Source: a virus | Length of the DNA stretch: 64,000 bases | IMG/VR virus record: IMGVR_UViG_3300011261_000048 | Span: 29,470-93,469 of that record | Strand: one strand, 5' to 3' | Shown here: positions 4,061-52,651 of the stretch, piece after piece | How the letters are laid out: every line of letters starts with the position of its first letter | How positions within the stretch are numbered: position 1 is the stretch's first letter | Position numbers and translations under genes: made by a program | Notes under the pieces: model-generated | The model's database searches: none | Seen by the model: only the letters and a program-made list of their open reading frames with translations | Told to the model about the DNA's origin: nothing

Positions 4061-5554
4061 TTATGCAAATGATGAATAATAACCAGCTTGCATGTTATGG
4101 ATAAAGCTAGCAGTACGAGAAGGATCTCTTACAATAGCAGCTCCACAATAGAACTTGTGCTCTTCCCATGCATCTTCAGCAGTACCTACTGCAGAAAATT
4201 GTGCATCTGGTGCAAAAGGATTTCTCAAACCTGGGATGTACTTGTGTACAATAGGCTGTCCTTTAACTTTACACTTTTGGATGTTTGGTGCTCCTGCAGA
4301 TGTTCCGATATCCATGATATCATATCTGTAAGATTCAACAACTCCTCCAGAAGGATGAAGCATCTTGTTACGGTTTCTGTCATCATACATAGAATCTACA
4401 GAAAGGTTAACCTTAATGTTGTTAGGTCCTAGATATTCAATGAACTGTCCACCATATCCTAATCCCATTTGGAATCCTGATTGTGATACTTTATACATTC
4501 TATCTTGATTCAACAATGGAGTAAACAATTGTGAAAAGTCTTCTAAAGATTTGTGGAACTCGTAAGCACCTCTTTCTCCAGTTCTTAATACAAATTGTCT
4601 TTCATCTGTTTTCAATTTACCTTCAGATAAATCCAAAAGTCTTGAAGACAAATCATTGATATCAAATACATTATAGAAAGAGCTGTTAGCTGCTTCCATT
4701 TGTTGTCTGATTCCTGCTCCTTCAGTAATAGAATAACCTGAGTCACCTTTTATTCTGTATTGTCCATCAGCACTTCTGTTAGATGTTCCAAACATGTATA
4801 ACTTGTTGATATCCTCACGGAACTCATTGTCAAACATGAAAGACTCATAATGTTGCCAGAACTTGATTACCTTTCCAGAATCATCTTTGAAGTATGATCC
4901 CATCTTTTTATTACTCATGTTTCCAGGAGTCTTCTTTTGGATTCTAATTTGTGAGAAAGACTGTCTCATTGAGATATGAGATTTATAGTTAATCTCTCTA
5001 CCTTTTCTAGACATAGTTCTTTCTACTGGAGAGAACTCACCTGAGAATCTTTTATTTGCTTGTACTTCCTCGTAAGGAATAAACAAATCTGCATCTCCTG
5101 AGTCCATTTTACAAGTGTGAACTGTGTTTAGACCTTCAGAAGCAGTAGAGATTACCAATATAGGATAAATCTCATTTAATTCACCTACAATTCTTTGTCC
5201 ATCAGAGAACCAGTTTTTAGGGAATACTAATTCAAAAGTGTTGTAGTTTTTTCCTGGTTCGTCTGCAGGAGTAACTGGTGTTCCGTCAATTCTACATTCT
5301 ACCAACTCAATGTTGTCTAGCCCTTGTGATTGTAAGTCCCATACAAAATCTGTATCGTCTTCTAATTCCAAAGCAGGGTACATAGATAGTACACTATCAA
5401 TGTTATTCCCAAAATAGTTTTGCTGAACATTCATAATCATGTCAGATACCTTTTGTGGAGCTTGTCCCCAGATAGCACCTAAGTGATTTTCTGTAGTCAA
5501 ACCTTTCCATGTAGTAGCATCCGTCATTTGTAATGGGGATATTCTAGTTGCCAT
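4061..5554 (-). CDS. Major capsid protein (crAss-like)
   Basis: 497 aa; N-terminal WKGLTTENHLG, GAGIRQQ, TGERG motifs; TerL-portal-scaffold-capsid gene order. Confidence 0.9.
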   Translation of the reverse strand: MATRISPLQMTDATTWKGLTTENHLGAIWGQAPQKVSDMIMNVQQNYFGNNIDSVLSMYPALELEDDTDFVWDLQSQGLDNIELVECRIDGTPVTPADEPGKNYNTFELVFPKNWFSDGQRIVGELNEIYPILVISTASEGLNTVHTCKMDSGDADLFIPYEEVQANKRFSGEFSPVERTMSRKGREINYKSHISMRQSFSQIRIQKKTPGNMSNKKMGSYFKDDSGKVIKFWQHYESFMFDNEFREDINKLYMFGTSNRSADGQYRIKGDSGYSITEGAGIRQQMEAANSSFYNVFDINDLSSRLLDLSEGKLKTDERQFVLRTGERGAYEFHKSLEDFSQLFTPLLNQDRMYKVSQSGFQMGLGYGGQFIEYLGPNNIKVNLSVDSMYDDRNRNKMLHPSGGVVESYRYDIMDIGTSAGAPNIQKCKVKGQPIVHKYIPGLRNPFAPDAQFSAVGTAEDAWEEHKFYCGAAIVRDPSRTASFIHNMQAGYYSSFA

Positions 5555-5582: not shown

Positions 5583-6758
5583 TTAAAAAGTTATATTCTT
5601 TAAAGCCTCGCCTATTTCTCTACTTGTTTTACCTTGAGTCACATTGCTGATAATGGAACCTCCACTAACTCCTGATCCTTGTTGAGATAATACTTTTTCT
5701 AGGTCATTAACTGCAGCAGTCTTACCGCTAGTAGTTATTTTACTAAAATCTGTAAATCCTTTTGTAATTACATGTAAAGTATGTAGTCTTACTTTGTACT
5801 CTTCGTCATCTTTATAACTGGCCATTACTTCATTTAGTGGAGTGTCATCATCCATTCTTATTGGAGATGTCATACTACTAAAAATTTTATTCTTAGTATT
5901 GGTAGTCACTTTGATACCTTTGAGTATTTCTGATTCACCATCTAACTTTGATTTAAGAGCTGCTATTCTGTTTTGCTCTTGTTCCAATTTAGATGCTTTA
6001 TCAGCTTTTGCTAATTCTAATTCTTTTGAGAACTCAGCTTCTTCATGGGCAACAAGGGCATTTTTTGCAGAAAAAGCATCACTAAAAAAAGTATCAGACT
6101 TAGCTGCAAGAGAAGCGTAATTCTCTGCAGTGTGTTCATCAAAGCCTTTAACAATGAAACTTCTTCTGATTAACTCCTTAGCTAATGCAGGTGATTCATT
6201 TATTGTAGTATCCTCAATTTGTTTGTACTGTGCTGAGTTAGACTTAGCTTTAGCAAATGTTTCTTGAGGTACTCCGTTTCTTAGGGCTTCTAAGTATTGT
6301 TTTTGATTCTCATCTAAATCAGAGAATTCACTTTGTTTAATTTGTTTTCCTATACTTTCCAGTAAGGAATTTACATCTTTAATTTCTGTAATCTCTTCTT
6401 CAGATAAAGAAGAGAAAGCTCCTGTTTCAATTAATGCCGAGGCTAGGGAAGTAAACGTGTCTTGAGAAGAGAGAGAAGCATTTTTATCTACAGGAGCTTT
6501 CTTGTCTTTAATATCTTTATTAATCTCTTCACCACTAGCATCTATGTTTGGGTCAACTATTGGGGTTTCAGCAGAAGCTAATGCTTCAAGGTCTATACCT
6601 TCATTATCTACTACTTCAACTTCTACTTTTTTATCATCTGCGTTAGCAGCAGGAGTAGTTTCCTTTACTGGGTCAGGTGTAAAACCTTCTGTATCTACAA
6701 TTGGAGTCTCAGAGCCAGCCAGCTCCTCCAAATTAATACTGTCAAAATTAAAATCCAT
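5583..6758 (-). CDS. Acidic scaffold-like protein between portal and capsid genes
   Basis: 391 aa; acidic low-complexity N-terminus, coiled-coil middle; position. Confidence 0.6.
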   Translation of the reverse strand: MDFNFDSINLEELAGSETPIVDTEGFTPDPVKETTPAANADDKKVEVEVVDNEGIDLEALASAETPIVDPNIDASGEEINKDIKDKKAPVDKNASLSSQDTFTSLASALIETGAFSSLSEEEITEIKDVNSLLESIGKQIKQSEFSDLDENQKQYLEALRNGVPQETFAKAKSNSAQYKQIEDTTINESPALAKELIRRSFIVKGFDEHTAENYASLAAKSDTFFSDAFSAKNALVAHEEAEFSKELELAKADKASKLEQEQNRIAALKSKLDGESEILKGIKVTTNTKNKIFSSMTSPIRMDDDTPLNEVMASYKDDEEYKVRLHTLHVITKGFTDFSKITTSGKTAAVNDLEKVLSQQGSGVSGGSIISNVTQGKTSREIGEALKNITF

Positions 6759-6781
6759 GTCTCTTTCTCTCTTTATGTGTA

Positions 6782-12271: not shown

Positions 12272-12559
12272 CTATTTATCTTCTATAATCTCTGATACGG
12301 GACTCATCTTACTAAGCATCTCTTCAGGTATATCCTTTTGGCCACCTTCAATAGATACTAGTTTTGTTTCTCTCTCTTTATTAATTTCTCTTAAGATTGC
12401 TATGTTCTGATTATCCATGAACTCCATTAGAGCTAACATAGTCATTCTTCCCTCAGCATTCTCACATAGGGCAATGACTCTTAAGCCATCTTTACTTACC
12501 CTTGTCATCATGTTATTAAGTACATTAGTTGCACTGTTTACTTCTCTCTCTTTACTCAT
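12272..12559 (-). CDS. Hypothetical protein
   Basis: 95 aa ORF overlapping the GroEL stop, in operon. Confidence 0.6.
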   Translation of the reverse strand: MSKEREVNSATNVLNNMMTRVSKDGLRVIALCENAEGRMTMLALMEFMDNQNIAILREINKERETKLVSIEGGQKDIPEEMLSKMSPVSEIIEDK

Positions 12560-14078
12560 TTACTTCCTTTTTAATTATTACACAGTTAGTAGTAAATAAC
12601 ATGTTTGCTGCACTAACAGCATTTGTTATAGTTGCCTTAATTACTAAAGCAGGATCTACTATTGTACTCTCTATTAACTCTGCTTTTAGTATAGCAGCTT
12701 CACCTTTAGTTAACTCTCCATTCTCACATAGTGTTACCCATAACTTTCTCATACTATCAAATACAATTGGGGCAGCTACGTTACCTTTAAACTTAGGCTC
12801 ACACTTATAGATTAGGTTCTCATAAGCCATACATCCACCTTTAACAACTCCTTGTTCTAGTGCACTCTGTACTGCTCTAATAGTATCATCTAGTCTATCT
12901 TTCTTCTCTTTAACTTCAGCCTCATTAGCTCCTCCTACGTAGATAATAGCTGCACCTGAAGTAAGTAGACCTAACCTCTTCTTGAAGTTCTTAGCTAATC
13001 CTTCCTTATCGTCCTCTATCTTATCTCTGTAGTATTGAACTCTTTCAGCAATAGCTTCAGGTACACCTTTCCTACCAATAATAGTAGTTTCCTTTAAAGT
13101 AATGTTAACTGCATCAGATAAACCTAATGCTCCTACAGTAATACTCTTAACGTCCCATCCTTTCTTCCTAGATATAAAAGCTGCTCCAGTAGCAATAGCT
13201 ATATCTTCTAGTGCCTCTGTTCTAGCATCAGCAATAAAAGGAGCTCTAATAATCTCTATTAAAGAACCATTAGTCTCGTTATTATAAGCAACTATACTAG
13301 CAGCTTGTTCAGTAATGTCCTCACATATAACAAGTAAAGGTCCACCACAACTTTCCTGTAACTTTACTATCTCTACAGCATCTGTTTGAGTAGTGATCTT
13401 CAAGTCAGTAACTAGTATCTTACACTCTAGGTGCTTAACACTAGTTCTACCTCCTACTAAAGCAGGAACAATGTGGCTTCTATCTAACTTAATACCTTCA
13501 GTAGCATCTAAACTAGTCTCGTAGTTTCTTGAATCAAATACAGACACAATACCTTCTACCCCTATTACTTTAAATGCATCACTTACTAATCCAGCAATAT
13601 AACTATCACCATTACAAGCTACCATAGCAACATCTAAAACATCGTCTATAGTAATGTGTTTAGTATTAAGTTCTAGCTCTTCTAGTAGTACCTTTACTAT
13701 CTCATCAATTGAGTTCTTTAATTGAGTAGTGTTTAAAGACTTATTACTATTAAGTACGTTAAATCCTTCCTCTACAATATACCTAGTAAGTATAGTAGTT
13801 GAAGTAGTACCATCTCCAGCAATCTCAGCAGTTTTTGCTGCAGCCTGTCTAATGATCTGGGCTGCAACATTTTCTACTGGGTCTACAAGGTTAATACTGT
13901 TAGCAACAGTTACACCATCTTTTGTAATATGAGCATCGTTAAAGATTTTAGACAACGCTACATTTCTTCCAAAAGGTCCAAAGGTTGTACTTACTGCATC
14001 AAAGATAGTTTGACTACCTTTTAATAATCTTTCTTGTACTTCCTTCCCTTTAATTACCTCACAAGTCTCTCTTACCAT
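12552..14078 (-). CDS. groEL: Chaperonin GroEL-like
   Basis: TFGPFGRNV, ITKDGVTVA, AGDGTTSTT, GGANEAEVKEKKDRLDD, GVVKGG motifs. Confidence 0.95.
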   Translation of the reverse strand: MVRETCEVIKGKEVQERLLKGSQTIFDAVSTTFGPFGRNVALSKIFNDAHITKDGVTVANSINLVDPVENVAAQIIRQAAAKTAEIAGDGTTSTTILTRYIVEEGFNVLNSNKSLNTTQLKNSIDEIVKVLLEELELNTKHITIDDVLDVAMVACNGDSYIAGLVSDAFKVIGVEGIVSVFDSRNYETSLDATEGIKLDRSHIVPALVGGRTSVKHLECKILVTDLKITTQTDAVEIVKLQESCGGPLLVICEDITEQAASIVAYNNETNGSLIEIIRAPFIADARTEALEDIAIATGAAFISRKKGWDVKSITVGALGLSDAVNITLKETTIIGRKGVPEAIAERVQYYRDKIEDDKEGLAKNFKKRLGLLTSGAAIIYVGGANEAEVKEKKDRLDDTIRAVQSALEQGVVKGGCMAYENLIYKCEPKFKGNVAAPIVFDSMRKLWVTLCENGELTKGEAAILKAELIESTIVDPALVIKATITNAVSAANMLFTTNCVIIKKEVNE

Positions 14079-14383
14079 TTTCCTACAAAATTACTTTCTC
14101 TAATCATAAGGTGCTCTCCCTTATTAATAATAATCCCTGAAGCAGACATTGCTACAGTAGTGATAGCTTTATCACCTACCTCTAATGTTACTACTCCTGG
14201 CCCTACAGCTAGTATTTCTACATCCTGCCATATATCAAACATGTTATGCTTCATATATTCTCCCTTCTCTGCAGGAGCTAACTTAGCTAAGTCTCCTTCC
14301 ATTGTTTTCTCCAGTCCGTATACTGGGTTAGCTATTAATACATAGTTAGCTAACGGTGTTGGTAAATTTTTCCCTAAATCCAT
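14072..14383 (-). CDS. groES: Co-chaperonin GroES-like
   Basis: PLANYVLI, ILAVGPG, LEVGD, GEHLMIRES motifs; overlaps the GroEL start. Confidence 0.85.
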   Translation of the reverse strand: MDLGKNLPTPLANYVLIANPVYGLEKTMEGDLAKLAPAEKGEYMKHNMFDIWQDVEILAVGPGVVTLEVGDKAITTVAMSASGIIINKGEHLMIRESNFVGKW

Positions 14384-27176: not shown

Positions 27177-28142
27177 ATGAGAAAAGTAACAAAAGATGAA
27201 GTAATAGAAAAATATAAAGATGCATTACGAATAAAAAGTACATTTGGACACCCTTTTACACTTGACTTAAGTACTTTACATGGCAATGGTAGTTCTTGGT
27301 ATGTAAAAGATGGTGTGGATATGGTTAGAAACATATATACGGCTACTGAAAATGAGCCGTGGGGAGAAATAATAACATTTAAAGCTAAATCTAATGTAGT
27401 AACAGATGAACATTTAAAGCACTTTAACTACGAGTACCCAAAAGAAGTATTAGAATTATGGTGTAAAGAGCAAGTATTACAAGGTAATAAATTTGACCCT
27501 ACTAAACTTAAAAAGGATAAAGGCTCAGGTGGGGTGCTTTGGCGTACATCTACTCAAGGACATAGTTTCTGGCAACGGATAATAGAGGATAAAATGTTTG
27601 ATAGTGCACGTATACCTGCACCTAGGCCTACTGAATATGCCTATAAACATAACTACCCTCCTAAAGTTAATGAAACAAAGAAAGTAGTTTGGTACAGAAT
27701 AGTAAAGCCTTTACATTATGACGGGGAGCCAAGGGTATTAGTTAAGTCTTCTAAACCTCTTCCTGAAGTAGGTGATATTTCTTGGGAAATTACCCCTATT
27801 ACAGGGAAAAGTATAGACTGTATACATTTAGAGCGTAATAAATTCAGTGCTAATATAGATAAAAGCTGTGTAGTAGAAATAGATAATCCTTATGATTCTA
27901 AACCAACAGTACATGGTGGAAGTTGGATGGGATTAACTAGTGAAAACCATTTAGGTAAATCATTTGTAATTAATAGTGATAATGCAGGAAGTATACAGTT
28001 ACCATGGGAAACACATACGTATAGTAGTAAAACAGAACTAGTACCTAAAAAAGAATCTAGCTCTATGCTTAAAAAAATAGGGGAACCTATTATCTTTAAA
28101 AAGAAGAAAGAAAGAAAACGTAATTTAATAATAACCAAATAA
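27177..28142 (+). CDS. Mosaic hypothetical protein containing a capsid-like motif
   Basis: 321 aa; residues 250-260 WMGLTSENHLG. Confidence 0.7.
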   Translation: MRKVTKDEVIEKYKDALRIKSTFGHPFTLDLSTLHGNGSSWYVKDGVDMVRNIYTATENEPWGEIITFKAKSNVVTDEHLKHFNYEYPKEVLELWCKEQVLQGNKFDPTKLKKDKGSGGVLWRTSTQGHSFWQRIIEDKMFDSARIPAPRPTEYAYKHNYPPKVNETKKVVWYRIVKPLHYDGEPRVLVKSSKPLPEVGDISWEITPITGKSIDCIHLERNKFSANIDKSCVVEIDNPYDSKPTVHGGSWMGLTSENHLGKSFVINSDNAGSIQLPWETHTYSSKTELVPKKESSSMLKKIGEPIIFKKKKERKRNLIITK

Positions 28143-29826: not shown

Positions 29827-30261
29827 ATGGAAAAATCTACAAGAAAAGATATTATACTGAATATAATATTCTGGGCAATAGTAGTACTAGCTTTCCTATT
29901 TATGATAGGAGGCAGTTTACATGCACAGACTAAGAGTGAAGTATATAAGGAGATAATTAAACAGGGTATAAAACATCCTGATATAGTTATGGCCCAAGCT
30001 AGATTAGAAACAGGTAACTTTACTTCTGGTATTTGTAAGCGTAATAACAATTTGTTTGGTATGAAACTACCTAAACAAAGAAGAACTACAGCAATAGGAG
30101 AAAGTAAAGGGCATGCTAGGTATAATAACTGGAAGAAATCAGTAGAAGATTATAAAATTTGGCAAGATACCTTTTATAAAGAAGGAGATTATTATATTTT
30201 CTTAGAATCTCATGGTTATGCTACAAGTAATACCTATATTAGCAAACTAAAACAATTTTAA
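29827..30261 (+). CDS. Glucosaminidase-domain (GH73-like) peptidoglycan hydrolase with N-terminal TM/signal
   Basis: AQARLETG, NNLFGMK, W..SVEDY, GYAT...Y..KL motifs. Confidence 0.85.
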   Translation: MEKSTRKDIILNIIFWAIVVLAFLFMIGGSLHAQTKSEVYKEIIKQGIKHPDIVMAQARLETGNFTSGICKRNNNLFGMKLPKQRRTTAIGESKGHARYNNWKKSVEDYKIWQDTFYKEGDYYIFLESHGYATSNTYISKLKQF

Positions 30262-51096: not shown

Positions 51097-51842
51097 TTAA
51101 GGTAGGTGTTATAGATGCAGACCCTATAGCTTATATATGTAGTAAAGATACCTTACAGGAGAGTTTAGATAACGTAGATGATTTAATAAGTAATGCATTA
51201 AATGCAGTACATTGTTCTCATTATTATATGTTTTTATCTGACTCTCCTTATTTTAGGCATCAAGTTAATACAGAGTATAAAGGGAAAAGGCCAACTTCAG
51301 AGTTGAAGTATTTAGAAGAAATAAAGCAGTATTTAAGAGATAAATATGGAGGGGTAAGTTATGAGGGGTTAGAAGCAGATGACTTAAGTGCATATGTAAT
51401 GACCACAGTATCAATAGCTTCTCCACAATTCTCTTTTATAAATATGTCAATAGATAAAGATGTGTTGCAATCTGTTTGGGGACCATGGTTTAACTTTAAA
51501 AAGTTTGAATCAGGTAAAACCACCAAAAAAGATGCAGCAGTATTTATATTTTTGCAGACATTAATGGGAGATGTTACAGATAATATCAAAGGAATCCCAG
51601 GAGTAGGAGAAGTAAAGGCTAATAATATCTTAGCAACTTGTAAGACACTAGATGAGATGAGAGGTACAGTTTTAAATGAATACTGTAAGAAATTTAAATC
51701 AACCTCAGTAGGAATTTATGAGTTTCAAAAGAATTTTAGACAAGTTTACTTATTAAGAAACACAGAGGACTTCAAGAATGAGGTAGGATATATTCCTAAG
51801 TTACCGAAACTTAGGATAACAGAGAGATGGGAAGAAGTATAG
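51093..51842 (+). CDS. 5'-3' exonuclease (FEN/T7 gp6-like)
   Basis: IDAD, YKGKR, EADD, DKD, GDVTDNIKGIPGVG motifs. Confidence 0.92.
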   Translation: MIKVGVIDADPIAYICSKDTLQESLDNVDDLISNALNAVHCSHYYMFLSDSPYFRHQVNTEYKGKRPTSELKYLEEIKQYLRDKYGGVSYEGLEADDLSAYVMTTVSIASPQFSFINMSIDKDVLQSVWGPWFNFKKFESGKTTKKDAAVFIFLQTLMGDVTDNIKGIPGVGEVKANNILATCKTLDEMRGTVLNEYCKKFKSTSVGIYEFQKNFRQVYLLRNTEDFKNEVGYIPKLPKLRITERWEEV

Positions 51843-52651
51843 TTTTAACAACAGAGAAAAATGTTTCTGTAATTATTACAGAAGAGAACCCCAGAACAAT
51901 ACATGTTAGTCCAGCACATGCTGACTACGAAGTATTAGATTCTGAAGGTAATATAGAAAGCATAAATTATGGCGGAGAGTACAAGATACACAAAAATAAA
52001 ACAATAAACCTAAATAAAACAAAATATAAACTAACTAATATAAAGAAAATAAAGGCTACCGCAAATAAGCCAGCATATTACAAACTTATAACAAATAACG
52101 GTTTAACAAAAACGTTTAACTTTATTATGCCCTTATTAGGGGATAATAGGGCGTTTTTTAAATTTTCTACACAATTTGTCAATGCATTTATAGGGTATGA
52201 GCCCTATGGAGATTACGGAGATAGTATATATTTACTTTACCGTTTTAGTGGGCAATTAGATTATATAAAATTTGAAGAACAACTAATGGAGCATCCTTGG
52301 TACAAAGAAACAGTAGATGTGGATAAATACCAAGTATTATATCAATTTGATATTCCAGAAGAACATAAAAAAGACGTAAATTTATTAATTAAAGGTAAGT
52401 ATTCTAGTGTTAGTGTAAGCACTAAAGAAAGGATACTAAGATTCCATAATTCTAGGGAAACTAGCACATTAGGACAGATTTTAAGTAAATCACCTATACG
52501 TAAGGAGTCCCTAGAAAAGGATTTACTACTAGATACCCCTATACCTGAAGATGTAGACTTATATAGTGTATTTTATCATGGAGATGAGATATTTAGAAAT
52601 CATTTAAGACTTGATAATAGTAAATTAGACAATAATAAGTTAGATGAATAA
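51827..52651 (+). CDS. Hypothetical protein
   Basis: 274 aa ORF in operon. Confidence 0.65.
   Translation: MGRSIVLTTEKNVSVIITEENPRTIHVSPAHADYEVLDSEGNIESINYGGEYKIHKNKTINLNKTKYKLTNIKKIKATANKPAYYKLITNNGLTKTFNFIMPLLGDNRAFFKFSTQFVNAFIGYEPYGDYGDSIYLLYRFSGQLDYIKFEEQLMEHPWYKETVDVDKYQVLYQFDIPEEHKKDVNLLIKGKYSSVSVSTKERILRFHNSRETSTLGQILSKSPIRKESLEKDLLLDTPIPEDVDLYSVFYHGDEIFRNHLRLDNSKLDNNKLDE

Follow-up and report, generated by a model that had tools for sequence, protein, structure and literature searches.

The Gol peptide of the T4 major capsid protein (MCP) gp23 triggers Lit together with EF-Tu, and the capsid protein of phage SECPhi27 triggers CapRel. A short peptide can also act as a signal on a non-capsid protein: the T4 capsid-targeting sequence (CTS) of IPI-III and Alt lies at the N-terminus, binds to the scaffold core, is cleaved off by the gp21 protease, and is not a copy of the MCP. 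The Gol/Lit and SECPhi27/CapRel cases resemble the locus described here, in which a short conserved capsid piece may likewise serve as a signal apart from its structural role. They differ from it in that the triggers belong to the capsid protein itself and are recognized by host proteins, whereas the peptide considered here lies in a separate gene. We know of no description of a separate phage gene that copies a capsid-derived trigger piece.

The window analyzed here (64,000 nucleotides) forms the right-hand part of an IMG/VR record of 93,469 bp that is 98% complete. The source record is an uncultured crAss-like phage. A preliminary description of the window had noted that an accessory ORF carries a near copy of an N-terminal peptide of the capsid protein and had interpreted it as a capsid mimic. 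The features that bear on this proposal are collected in Table 1.

Table 1. Positions in the window of the capsid protein, the accessory protein P0001, and related features
Feature	Position	Strand	Basis
Major capsid protein P0002 (MCP), 497 aa, HK97 fold, crAss type	4061..5554	-	Pfam, PHROG, PDB
Original N-arm signature, MCP W16-G26, WKGLTTENHLG	5477..5509	-	densest invariant block
P0051, putative scaffolding protein, 391 aa	5583..6758	-	directly upstream of MCP, acidic, coiled-coil-like
P0001, accessory protein, 321 aa	27177..28142	+	AF2, HMMER
Widespread phage module, P0001 residues 71-155, FPxEV..QGN..D...GGFxW..T.EG..FW	27387..27641	+	HMMER, pLDDT 85-93
Copy of the MCP N-arm signature, P0001 W250-G260, WMGLTSENHLG, with the conserved aromatic at +3 (F263)	27924..27965	+	hhalign, HMM
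Lys/Arg-rich C-terminal end, P0001 residues ~296-321	28065..28139	+	composition

The capsid protein and its N-terminal signature

The capsid identity of P0002 is firm. The protein matches the Pfam family Crass_capsid (PF23898; 1.7e-132) and phrog_11589, is ~41% identical to PhicrAss001 gp32, and agrees with gp32 in PDB 7QOF both in sequence (3e-109) and in fold (VIA Z 23.1 to 7qof_A). The portal and large terminase genes adjoin its gene. In the AF2 monomer, MCP residues 1-30 have pLDDT values below 50, yet they contain the best-conserved block of the protein. In the crAss001 virion, the 7qoi_CD chain is aligned from residue 7, and 7qof_A models 472 of 504 residues, which fits an N-terminal arm (N-arm) that is ordered only in some environments. 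The accessible part of the crAss001 structure paper says nothing on the N-arm, its contacts, the scaffold, or MCP processing.

P0051, whose gene lies directly upstream of the MCP gene, has a pI of 4.6 and a coiled-coil-like sequence. A gene of ~380-435 aa occupies the same place in Fpv3, ProJPt-Bp1, cr52_1, and crAssphage ZA. Family searches with P0051 gave no match, and a literature search for Crassvirales scaffolds was without result. By its position, P0051 is a scaffold candidate, and it could also be the partner of the N-arm.

The degenerate pattern W-x-G-L-T-x-E-N-H-L-G was found in at least 120 IMG/VR contigs. All 120 matches listed are MCP N-termini, with the motif starting between residues 7 and 18, mostly at 14-17. 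In the MCP alignments, whose members are 32-94% identical and whose rows were mostly picked by the motif, invariant columns are packed most densely at W16, G18, L19, T20, E22, N23, H24, and G26. Fifteen relatives that were found independently of the motif also keep the signature, apart from an L/I exchange at one position. The signature is fixed in the crAss001 group, where E is replaced by D, and in environmental relatives of this phage. Flavobacterium phage Fpv3 has it in part, and Azobacteroides phage ProJPt-Bp1 shows a faint trace at most. The signature is absent from p-crAssphage, cr1_1, and cr52_1; of the three Suoliviridae looked at, two lack it. At position 17 of the MCP, family members have K, S, T, G, or M, and this position is therefore not a conserved lysine acceptor.

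As judged from these alignments, the signature is the most strongly fixed MCP stretch across a large crAss-like clade. The fixation of this stretch, which lies in a flexible N-arm, points to a conserved intermolecular contact in capsid assembly, and the signature would represent a binding site.

Several further features of the capsid genes and their surroundings were observed. In IMGVR_UViG_3300033120_000148 (~6661-6780), the MCP N-terminus contains two in-frame TAG codons at positions where relatives have Gln, which fits TAG-to-Gln recoding. In NC_055880.1 (cr111_1) and MT774389.1 (cr116_1), the annotation places a homing endonuclease or hypothetical gene between two separate parts of the MCP match, and the capsid genes of these two phages appear to be interrupted. 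In the present window, a gene for a Cpn60/TCP-1 family chaperonin of 508 aa (12552-14078, minus strand; Pfam 1.5e-38) heads the packaging and capsid block. Family searches gave no match for the adjacent small ORFs (12272-12559 and 14072-14383), and no GroES-like partner was identified among them.

The second occurrence of the signature

Both peptides named in the preliminary description are present. WMGLTSENHLG occupies residues 250-260 of P0001 (27924-27956), and WKGLTTENHLG, identical to it at 9 of 11 positions, corresponds to MCP residues 16-26 (5477-5509). The MCP copy is on the minus strand, and a plus-strand reading of 5477-5509 gives nonsense. P0001 keeps all nine of the nine family-fixed residues, and both mismatches (K to M and T to S) fall on the two variable positions, which is one of the 55 possible placements of two mismatches. 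The next conserved aromatic, three residues beyond the signature, also matches in P0001 (F263). The sequence of P0001 agrees exactly with the N-arm signature written as W-x-G-L-T-x-[ED]-N-H-[LI]-G. Alignment with hhalign pairs P0001 residues 247-267 with MCP residues 14-34 (E 8.5e-5), with only 21 columns covered. Compared with the full-length Crass_capsid profile in a Pfam scan, P0001 was assigned to no family even at E up to 1. A match on exactly those residues that are fixed in the MCP family is what a functional mimic predicts.

The strength of the match differs between the bare peptide and the family signature. As a bare peptide match, it is weak and mildly unusual. When all 114 ORFs are compared with one another, its ungapped score of 56 shares third rank. 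Shuffling yields a 9/11 window in 3 of 40 proteomes (~7%), and Karlin-Altschul statistics predict about one such match per proteome. As a match to the family signature, it is strong. Two occurrences of the degenerate DNA pattern are present in the window, compared with none in 100 shuffles, even with 3 mismatches allowed. An HMM of the N-arm scores P0001 at 20.8 bits (E 1.5e-6) and the next protein at 2.9 bits, while a six-frame search of the whole genome with the N-arm profile gives 24.1 bits for P0001 (E 4.1e-6). With an HMM built from the relatives found independently of the motif, P0001 reaches 17.1 bits (E 2.1e-5), compared with 9.4 bits for the best of 300 shuffled proteomes. The nine fixed residues are expected by chance at 1.5e-12 per position and 3.8e-8 per proteome. 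The shared stretch comprises only ~14 residues, and the match was picked from a very large scan, in which look-elsewhere effects are real.

Further copies outside capsid proteins were sought in several collections. Pattern scans of 2.9 million viral contigs (IMG/VR), which may leave out the record of this genome itself, returned only MCP N-termini among the matches listed and no non-capsid copy. A Gln seven residues upstream of the Trp is near-invariant in MCPs, and two IMG/VR scans that excluded it gave 11 matches, all of them MCP N-termini, including one from a TAG-recoded phage. The narrower form W-M-G-L-T had one match in 241 million JGI metagenome records, again an MCP N-terminus and not a non-capsid copy. 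Of 40 related crAss-like records, 21 of which are at least 90% complete, 39 gave the MCP as the sole match to the N-arm profile and the remaining one, a fragment, gave none, with matches accepted at E up to 1. The same profile search on the present genome does find P0001.

A fast-evolving orphan tail could happen to spell the signature without any biological meaning. The match is short and ranks as described above among bare peptides; it was picked from a scan of very many windows, and there are no homologues to show its conservation. Against such an accident, the match lies on the most conserved 11-mer of the MCP, which is one of ~487 windows, and the mismatches are restricted to its free positions. 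The profile E-values are 1e-5 to 1e-6 per genome, and the per-proteome expectation for the exact signature is lower still. In addition, the searches at E up to 1 in the 40 related genomes gave no second match, and those in IMG/VR gave MCP N-termini only among the matches listed. We regard a chance origin as unlikely but far from negligible.

The preliminary description had also placed the similarity at the protein level rather than in a recent DNA copy, and the codons bear this out. Four shared residues show the synonymous differences that it listed (GGT/GGA, TTG/TTA, AAT/AAC, and CAC/CAT). Five of the nine codons are the same, compared with 4.8 expected from codon usage. Since the codon identity is at the level of independent back-translation, the peptide is not a recent DNA copy. 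No similarity between P0001 and the MCP extends beyond ~21 residues (hhalign), and no DNA homology is left. If the copy arose by duplication, the peptide was held while the synonymous sites became saturated; convergence is an equally possible origin. If the copy is old, nothing but the family-fixed residues has been preserved; this would favor selection acting on those residues that are also fixed in the MCP, and the motif copy would then itself be under selection.

An old illegitimate recombination event could instead have placed a 5' piece of the MCP gene into the ORF, leaving a functionless remnant. Phage accessory regions are mosaic, and P0001 itself is chimeric, as described below. Nevertheless, no similarity is seen outside residues 247-267 and no DNA homology remains, and neutral decay would not spare precisely the nine fixed residues while erasing neighbors of moderate conservation, among them Q9 and P33-Q-K of the MCP. 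Such a relic appears improbable to us.

P0001 and the possible role of its tail

P0001 consists of an N-terminal part (residues 1-70), a helical module (71-155), a beta-rich middle (~186-236), and a low-confidence basic tail (241-321). The whole tail has a pI of 10.0, and its last part, residues 296-321, has 10 K/R compared with 2 D/E and a pI of 10.8. In the AF2 model the module is predicted with pLDDT 85-93 and residues 152-321 with 27-45. The 160-codon C-terminal half, at 33% GC, would be open by chance with a probability of ~4e-6 (stop-codon frequency ~0.075). When the P0001 model was used for fold searches, PDB representatives reached at most Z 4.4, and BFVD gave no match at E <=0.001; the C-terminal half of the model is too poor for fold inference.

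An exhaustive HMMER search of 1.84 billion representatives returned 48 other proteins, nearly all matching only residues 73-155; a single one also covers residues 1-97. The best phmmer E-value for the module is 3.5e-17, over residues 73-155. The module relatives match phrog_16354, 25460, 10949, and 20568, all annotated as 'unknown function'. P0001 itself falls below the PHROG threshold and shares the ~70-aa helical module of the family around phrog_16354 / phrog_25460. In the metagenomic proteins P0003-P0006, P0014, and P0015 (330-520 aa), the module is present as 2-5 tandem repeats with the pattern FPxEV..QGN..D..GGFxW..T.EG..FW..FF..YPK. None of the 48 module proteins matches the MCP or N-arm profile of this particular clade (best E 0.07).

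Conversely, no homologue of residues 160-321 was found by tblastn against a phage collection or in IMG/VR, JGI metagenome contigs, HMMER searches, or the ESM Atlas. A word search of 5.8 billion proteins returned P0001 itself only, on 4 contigs. As judged from these comparisons, P0001 is chimeric, with a widespread module joined to an orphan half. Its gene is absent from five near-complete relatives whose MCPs are 60-81% identical to that of this phage, and the neighboring genes are mostly absent from them as well. The gene sits among small ORFs in a hypervariable accessory block of the non-structural plus-strand arm, and it may plausibly be an early gene. A search of sequencing runs gave three DNA runs with small word shares (0.07-0.15) and no RNA run. 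The small accessory ORFs of the window also include one (29827-30261, plus strand) whose 144-aa product has a mannosyl-glycoprotein endo-beta-N-acetylglucosaminidase domain (Pfam 6.3e-17); the C-terminal part of this product has weak phmmer matches to two proteins of the module family.

The copy in the tail looks like molecular mimicry. The reading as a capsid mimic gains from the statistics and the residue pattern and loses from the fact that the copy is unique to this phage. The preliminary description had pointed to homologues of the ORF and to other non-capsid proteins as places where further copies would be expected. The proteins that share the module lack the motif and no other non-capsid copy turned up in the 40 related genomes or in IMG/VR, which formally speaks against a recurrent mimic. 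Since the motif-bearing half of P0001 has no homologues, this outcome shows uniqueness and not loss. A one-off copy in a block of fast gene turnover could be an accident. The motif site is without a confident fold in both proteins (pLDDT below 50 in MCP residues 1-30 and ~30 in a coil of P0001), and disorder in both, as predicted by these models, is the context of a linear motif.

We tentatively propose that the tail copy acts as a short linear mimic and binds the partner of the N-arm in capsid assembly, a reading that we hold to be possible but doubtful. P0001 would be a lineage-specific accessory protein that presents a functional copy of the N-arm signature, W-x-G-L-T-x-E-N-H-L-G-x-x-aromatic, on its disordered basic C-terminal tail. 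In the MCP, the N-arm would contact either a neighboring capsid subunit or the acidic scaffold-like protein encoded just upstream, and the P0001 copy would occupy the binding site of the arm. We infer both the identity of this partner and the outcome of P0001 binding, which could be of two kinds. P0001 may be tethered to assembling procapsids, with its Lys/Arg-rich end placed on the acidic scaffold or on DNA. Alternatively, it may compete with capsid subunits and thereby modulate assembly. A complex prediction for MCP residues 27-497 with P0001 residues 236-295 gave a score of 0.00, which speaks neither for nor against binding.

The tail copy might instead mimic newly made capsid protein towards a host sensor of the MCP N-arm, which it would bind without firing or would titrate. 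The statistical case for mimicry is the same as for docking. Counter-defence genes usually lie in hypervariable accessory blocks. The P0001 gene is located in a hypervariable, lineage-specific block, and its neighbors are also not conserved in relatives. Moreover, a segment that is fixed across a clade is the kind of target that a sensor would evolve to read. However, a copy that retains every recognized residue would be expected to trigger a sensor of the Lit or CapRel type and not to block it, and our literature search found no capsid-mimic decoy. We consider a decoy function unlikely.

Besides docking on the partner of the N-arm, a further possibility is that the two proteins share a site of cleavage, modification, or chaperone docking, recognized by a prohead protease, an Ubl-E2-E1 system, or Cpn60. 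The sequence T-x-E followed by N in the signature resembles Glu-specific prohead-protease sites. The phage encodes a Cpn60-family protein, and T4 gp61.1, discussed below, copies the cleavage region of gp23. On the other side, the prohead protease families Peptidase_S77 (PF03420) and Peptidase_S78 (PF04586), of the T4 and HK97 types, have no match in the genome. The accessible part of the crAss001 structure paper does not mention MCP processing, and the variable position 17 offers no conserved lysine acceptor. Since crAss001 has the signature too, whatever reads it should be clade-wide, and a phage-specific chaperonin or Ubl alone would not explain its fixation. A shared site of this kind seems to us quite improbable.

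Comparison with known systems

The closest relative of the motif is the N-arm of the crAss MCP (PF23898; PhicrAss001 gp32, 7QOF/7QOH/7QOI), in which every fixed position is reproduced by P0001 residues 250-263. P0001 differs from these capsid proteins in lacking the HK97 fold and in carrying the motif near the C-terminus of a non-structural, multi-part protein and not at the N-terminus. By analogy, the T4 CTS resembles our proposal for P0001, since a short peptide on a non-capsid protein would direct it to the assembling prohead. In contrast to the CTS, the P0001 peptide is C-terminal (residues 250-260 of 321) and copies the MCP, and no protease was found; P0001 thus does not carry a CTS in the T4 sense.

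If the copy works, the 11-residue capsid stretch that is fixed across the clade is an interaction site and provides a handle on crAss capsid assembly; this stretch is not discussed in the accessible part of the crAss001 structure paper. A decoy would represent a new type of counter-defence. A chance match would still leave a lasting result, namely the N-arm signature as defined here and its distribution.

A separate observation concerns a 274-aa protein of no known family (51827-52651, plus strand), whose gene is flanked by one for a 5'-3' exonuclease and by a UDG-like gene. Over a stretch of 33 residues, it resembles residues 551-583 of the muzzle protein (G000:C1:12770-17242, minus strand; 1490 aa; Pfam crAss_MUZ 5.4e-151), with 14 identities and a pairwise E of 5e-4, and this pair ranks first in the all-against-all comparison. 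The non-structural gene for the 274-aa protein may hold a second virion-protein excerpt.

A parallel to P0001 is found in T4. The protein gp61.1 (54 aa, annotated as hypothetical) copies gp23 residues 58-95 at the protein level, with E 1.4e-5 in the T4 genome (NC_000866; 18966-19130 and 105116-105229). The copied part of gp23 includes both the Glu65 maturation site and the first residues of the mature N-arm. In gp61.1, the capsid copy is followed by a lysine-rich tail, KKKKEESKEKEE. Gene 61.1 lies next to the primase gene, among replication genes. In our literature search, gp61.1 was named in just two genome papers, and no study of it was found. The T4 parallel raises the prior that such copies are functional. 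If the P0001 copy works, it adds a case to an apparently undescribed phage habit, in which separate genes excerpt the virion proteins of their own phage.

It is possible, although still a tentative generalization, that P0001 represents, in the crAss lineage, a general and unstudied class of phage proteins. Each of these would present a copy of its own phage's capsid N-arm, usually followed by a basic tail, with gp61.1 as the member in a model phage. Proteins of this class would dock on the site of the arm or compete for it, or they would bait sensors of nascent capsid protein, and the crAss signature would be a portable interaction motif. The two proteins are alike in that each contains a copy of the N-arm of its own MCP followed by a basic tail, and in that each gene is located outside the structural block. 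They show no sequence similarity to each other (BLASTP E 3.1). They also differ in build: gp61.1 is a free-standing mini-protein with a 38-residue copy that spans the protease site, whereas P0001 has 321 aa, its copy covers 14 residues, and no prohead protease was found in its phage. T4 gp61.1 offers a tractable model for the excerpting of a phage's own virion proteins.
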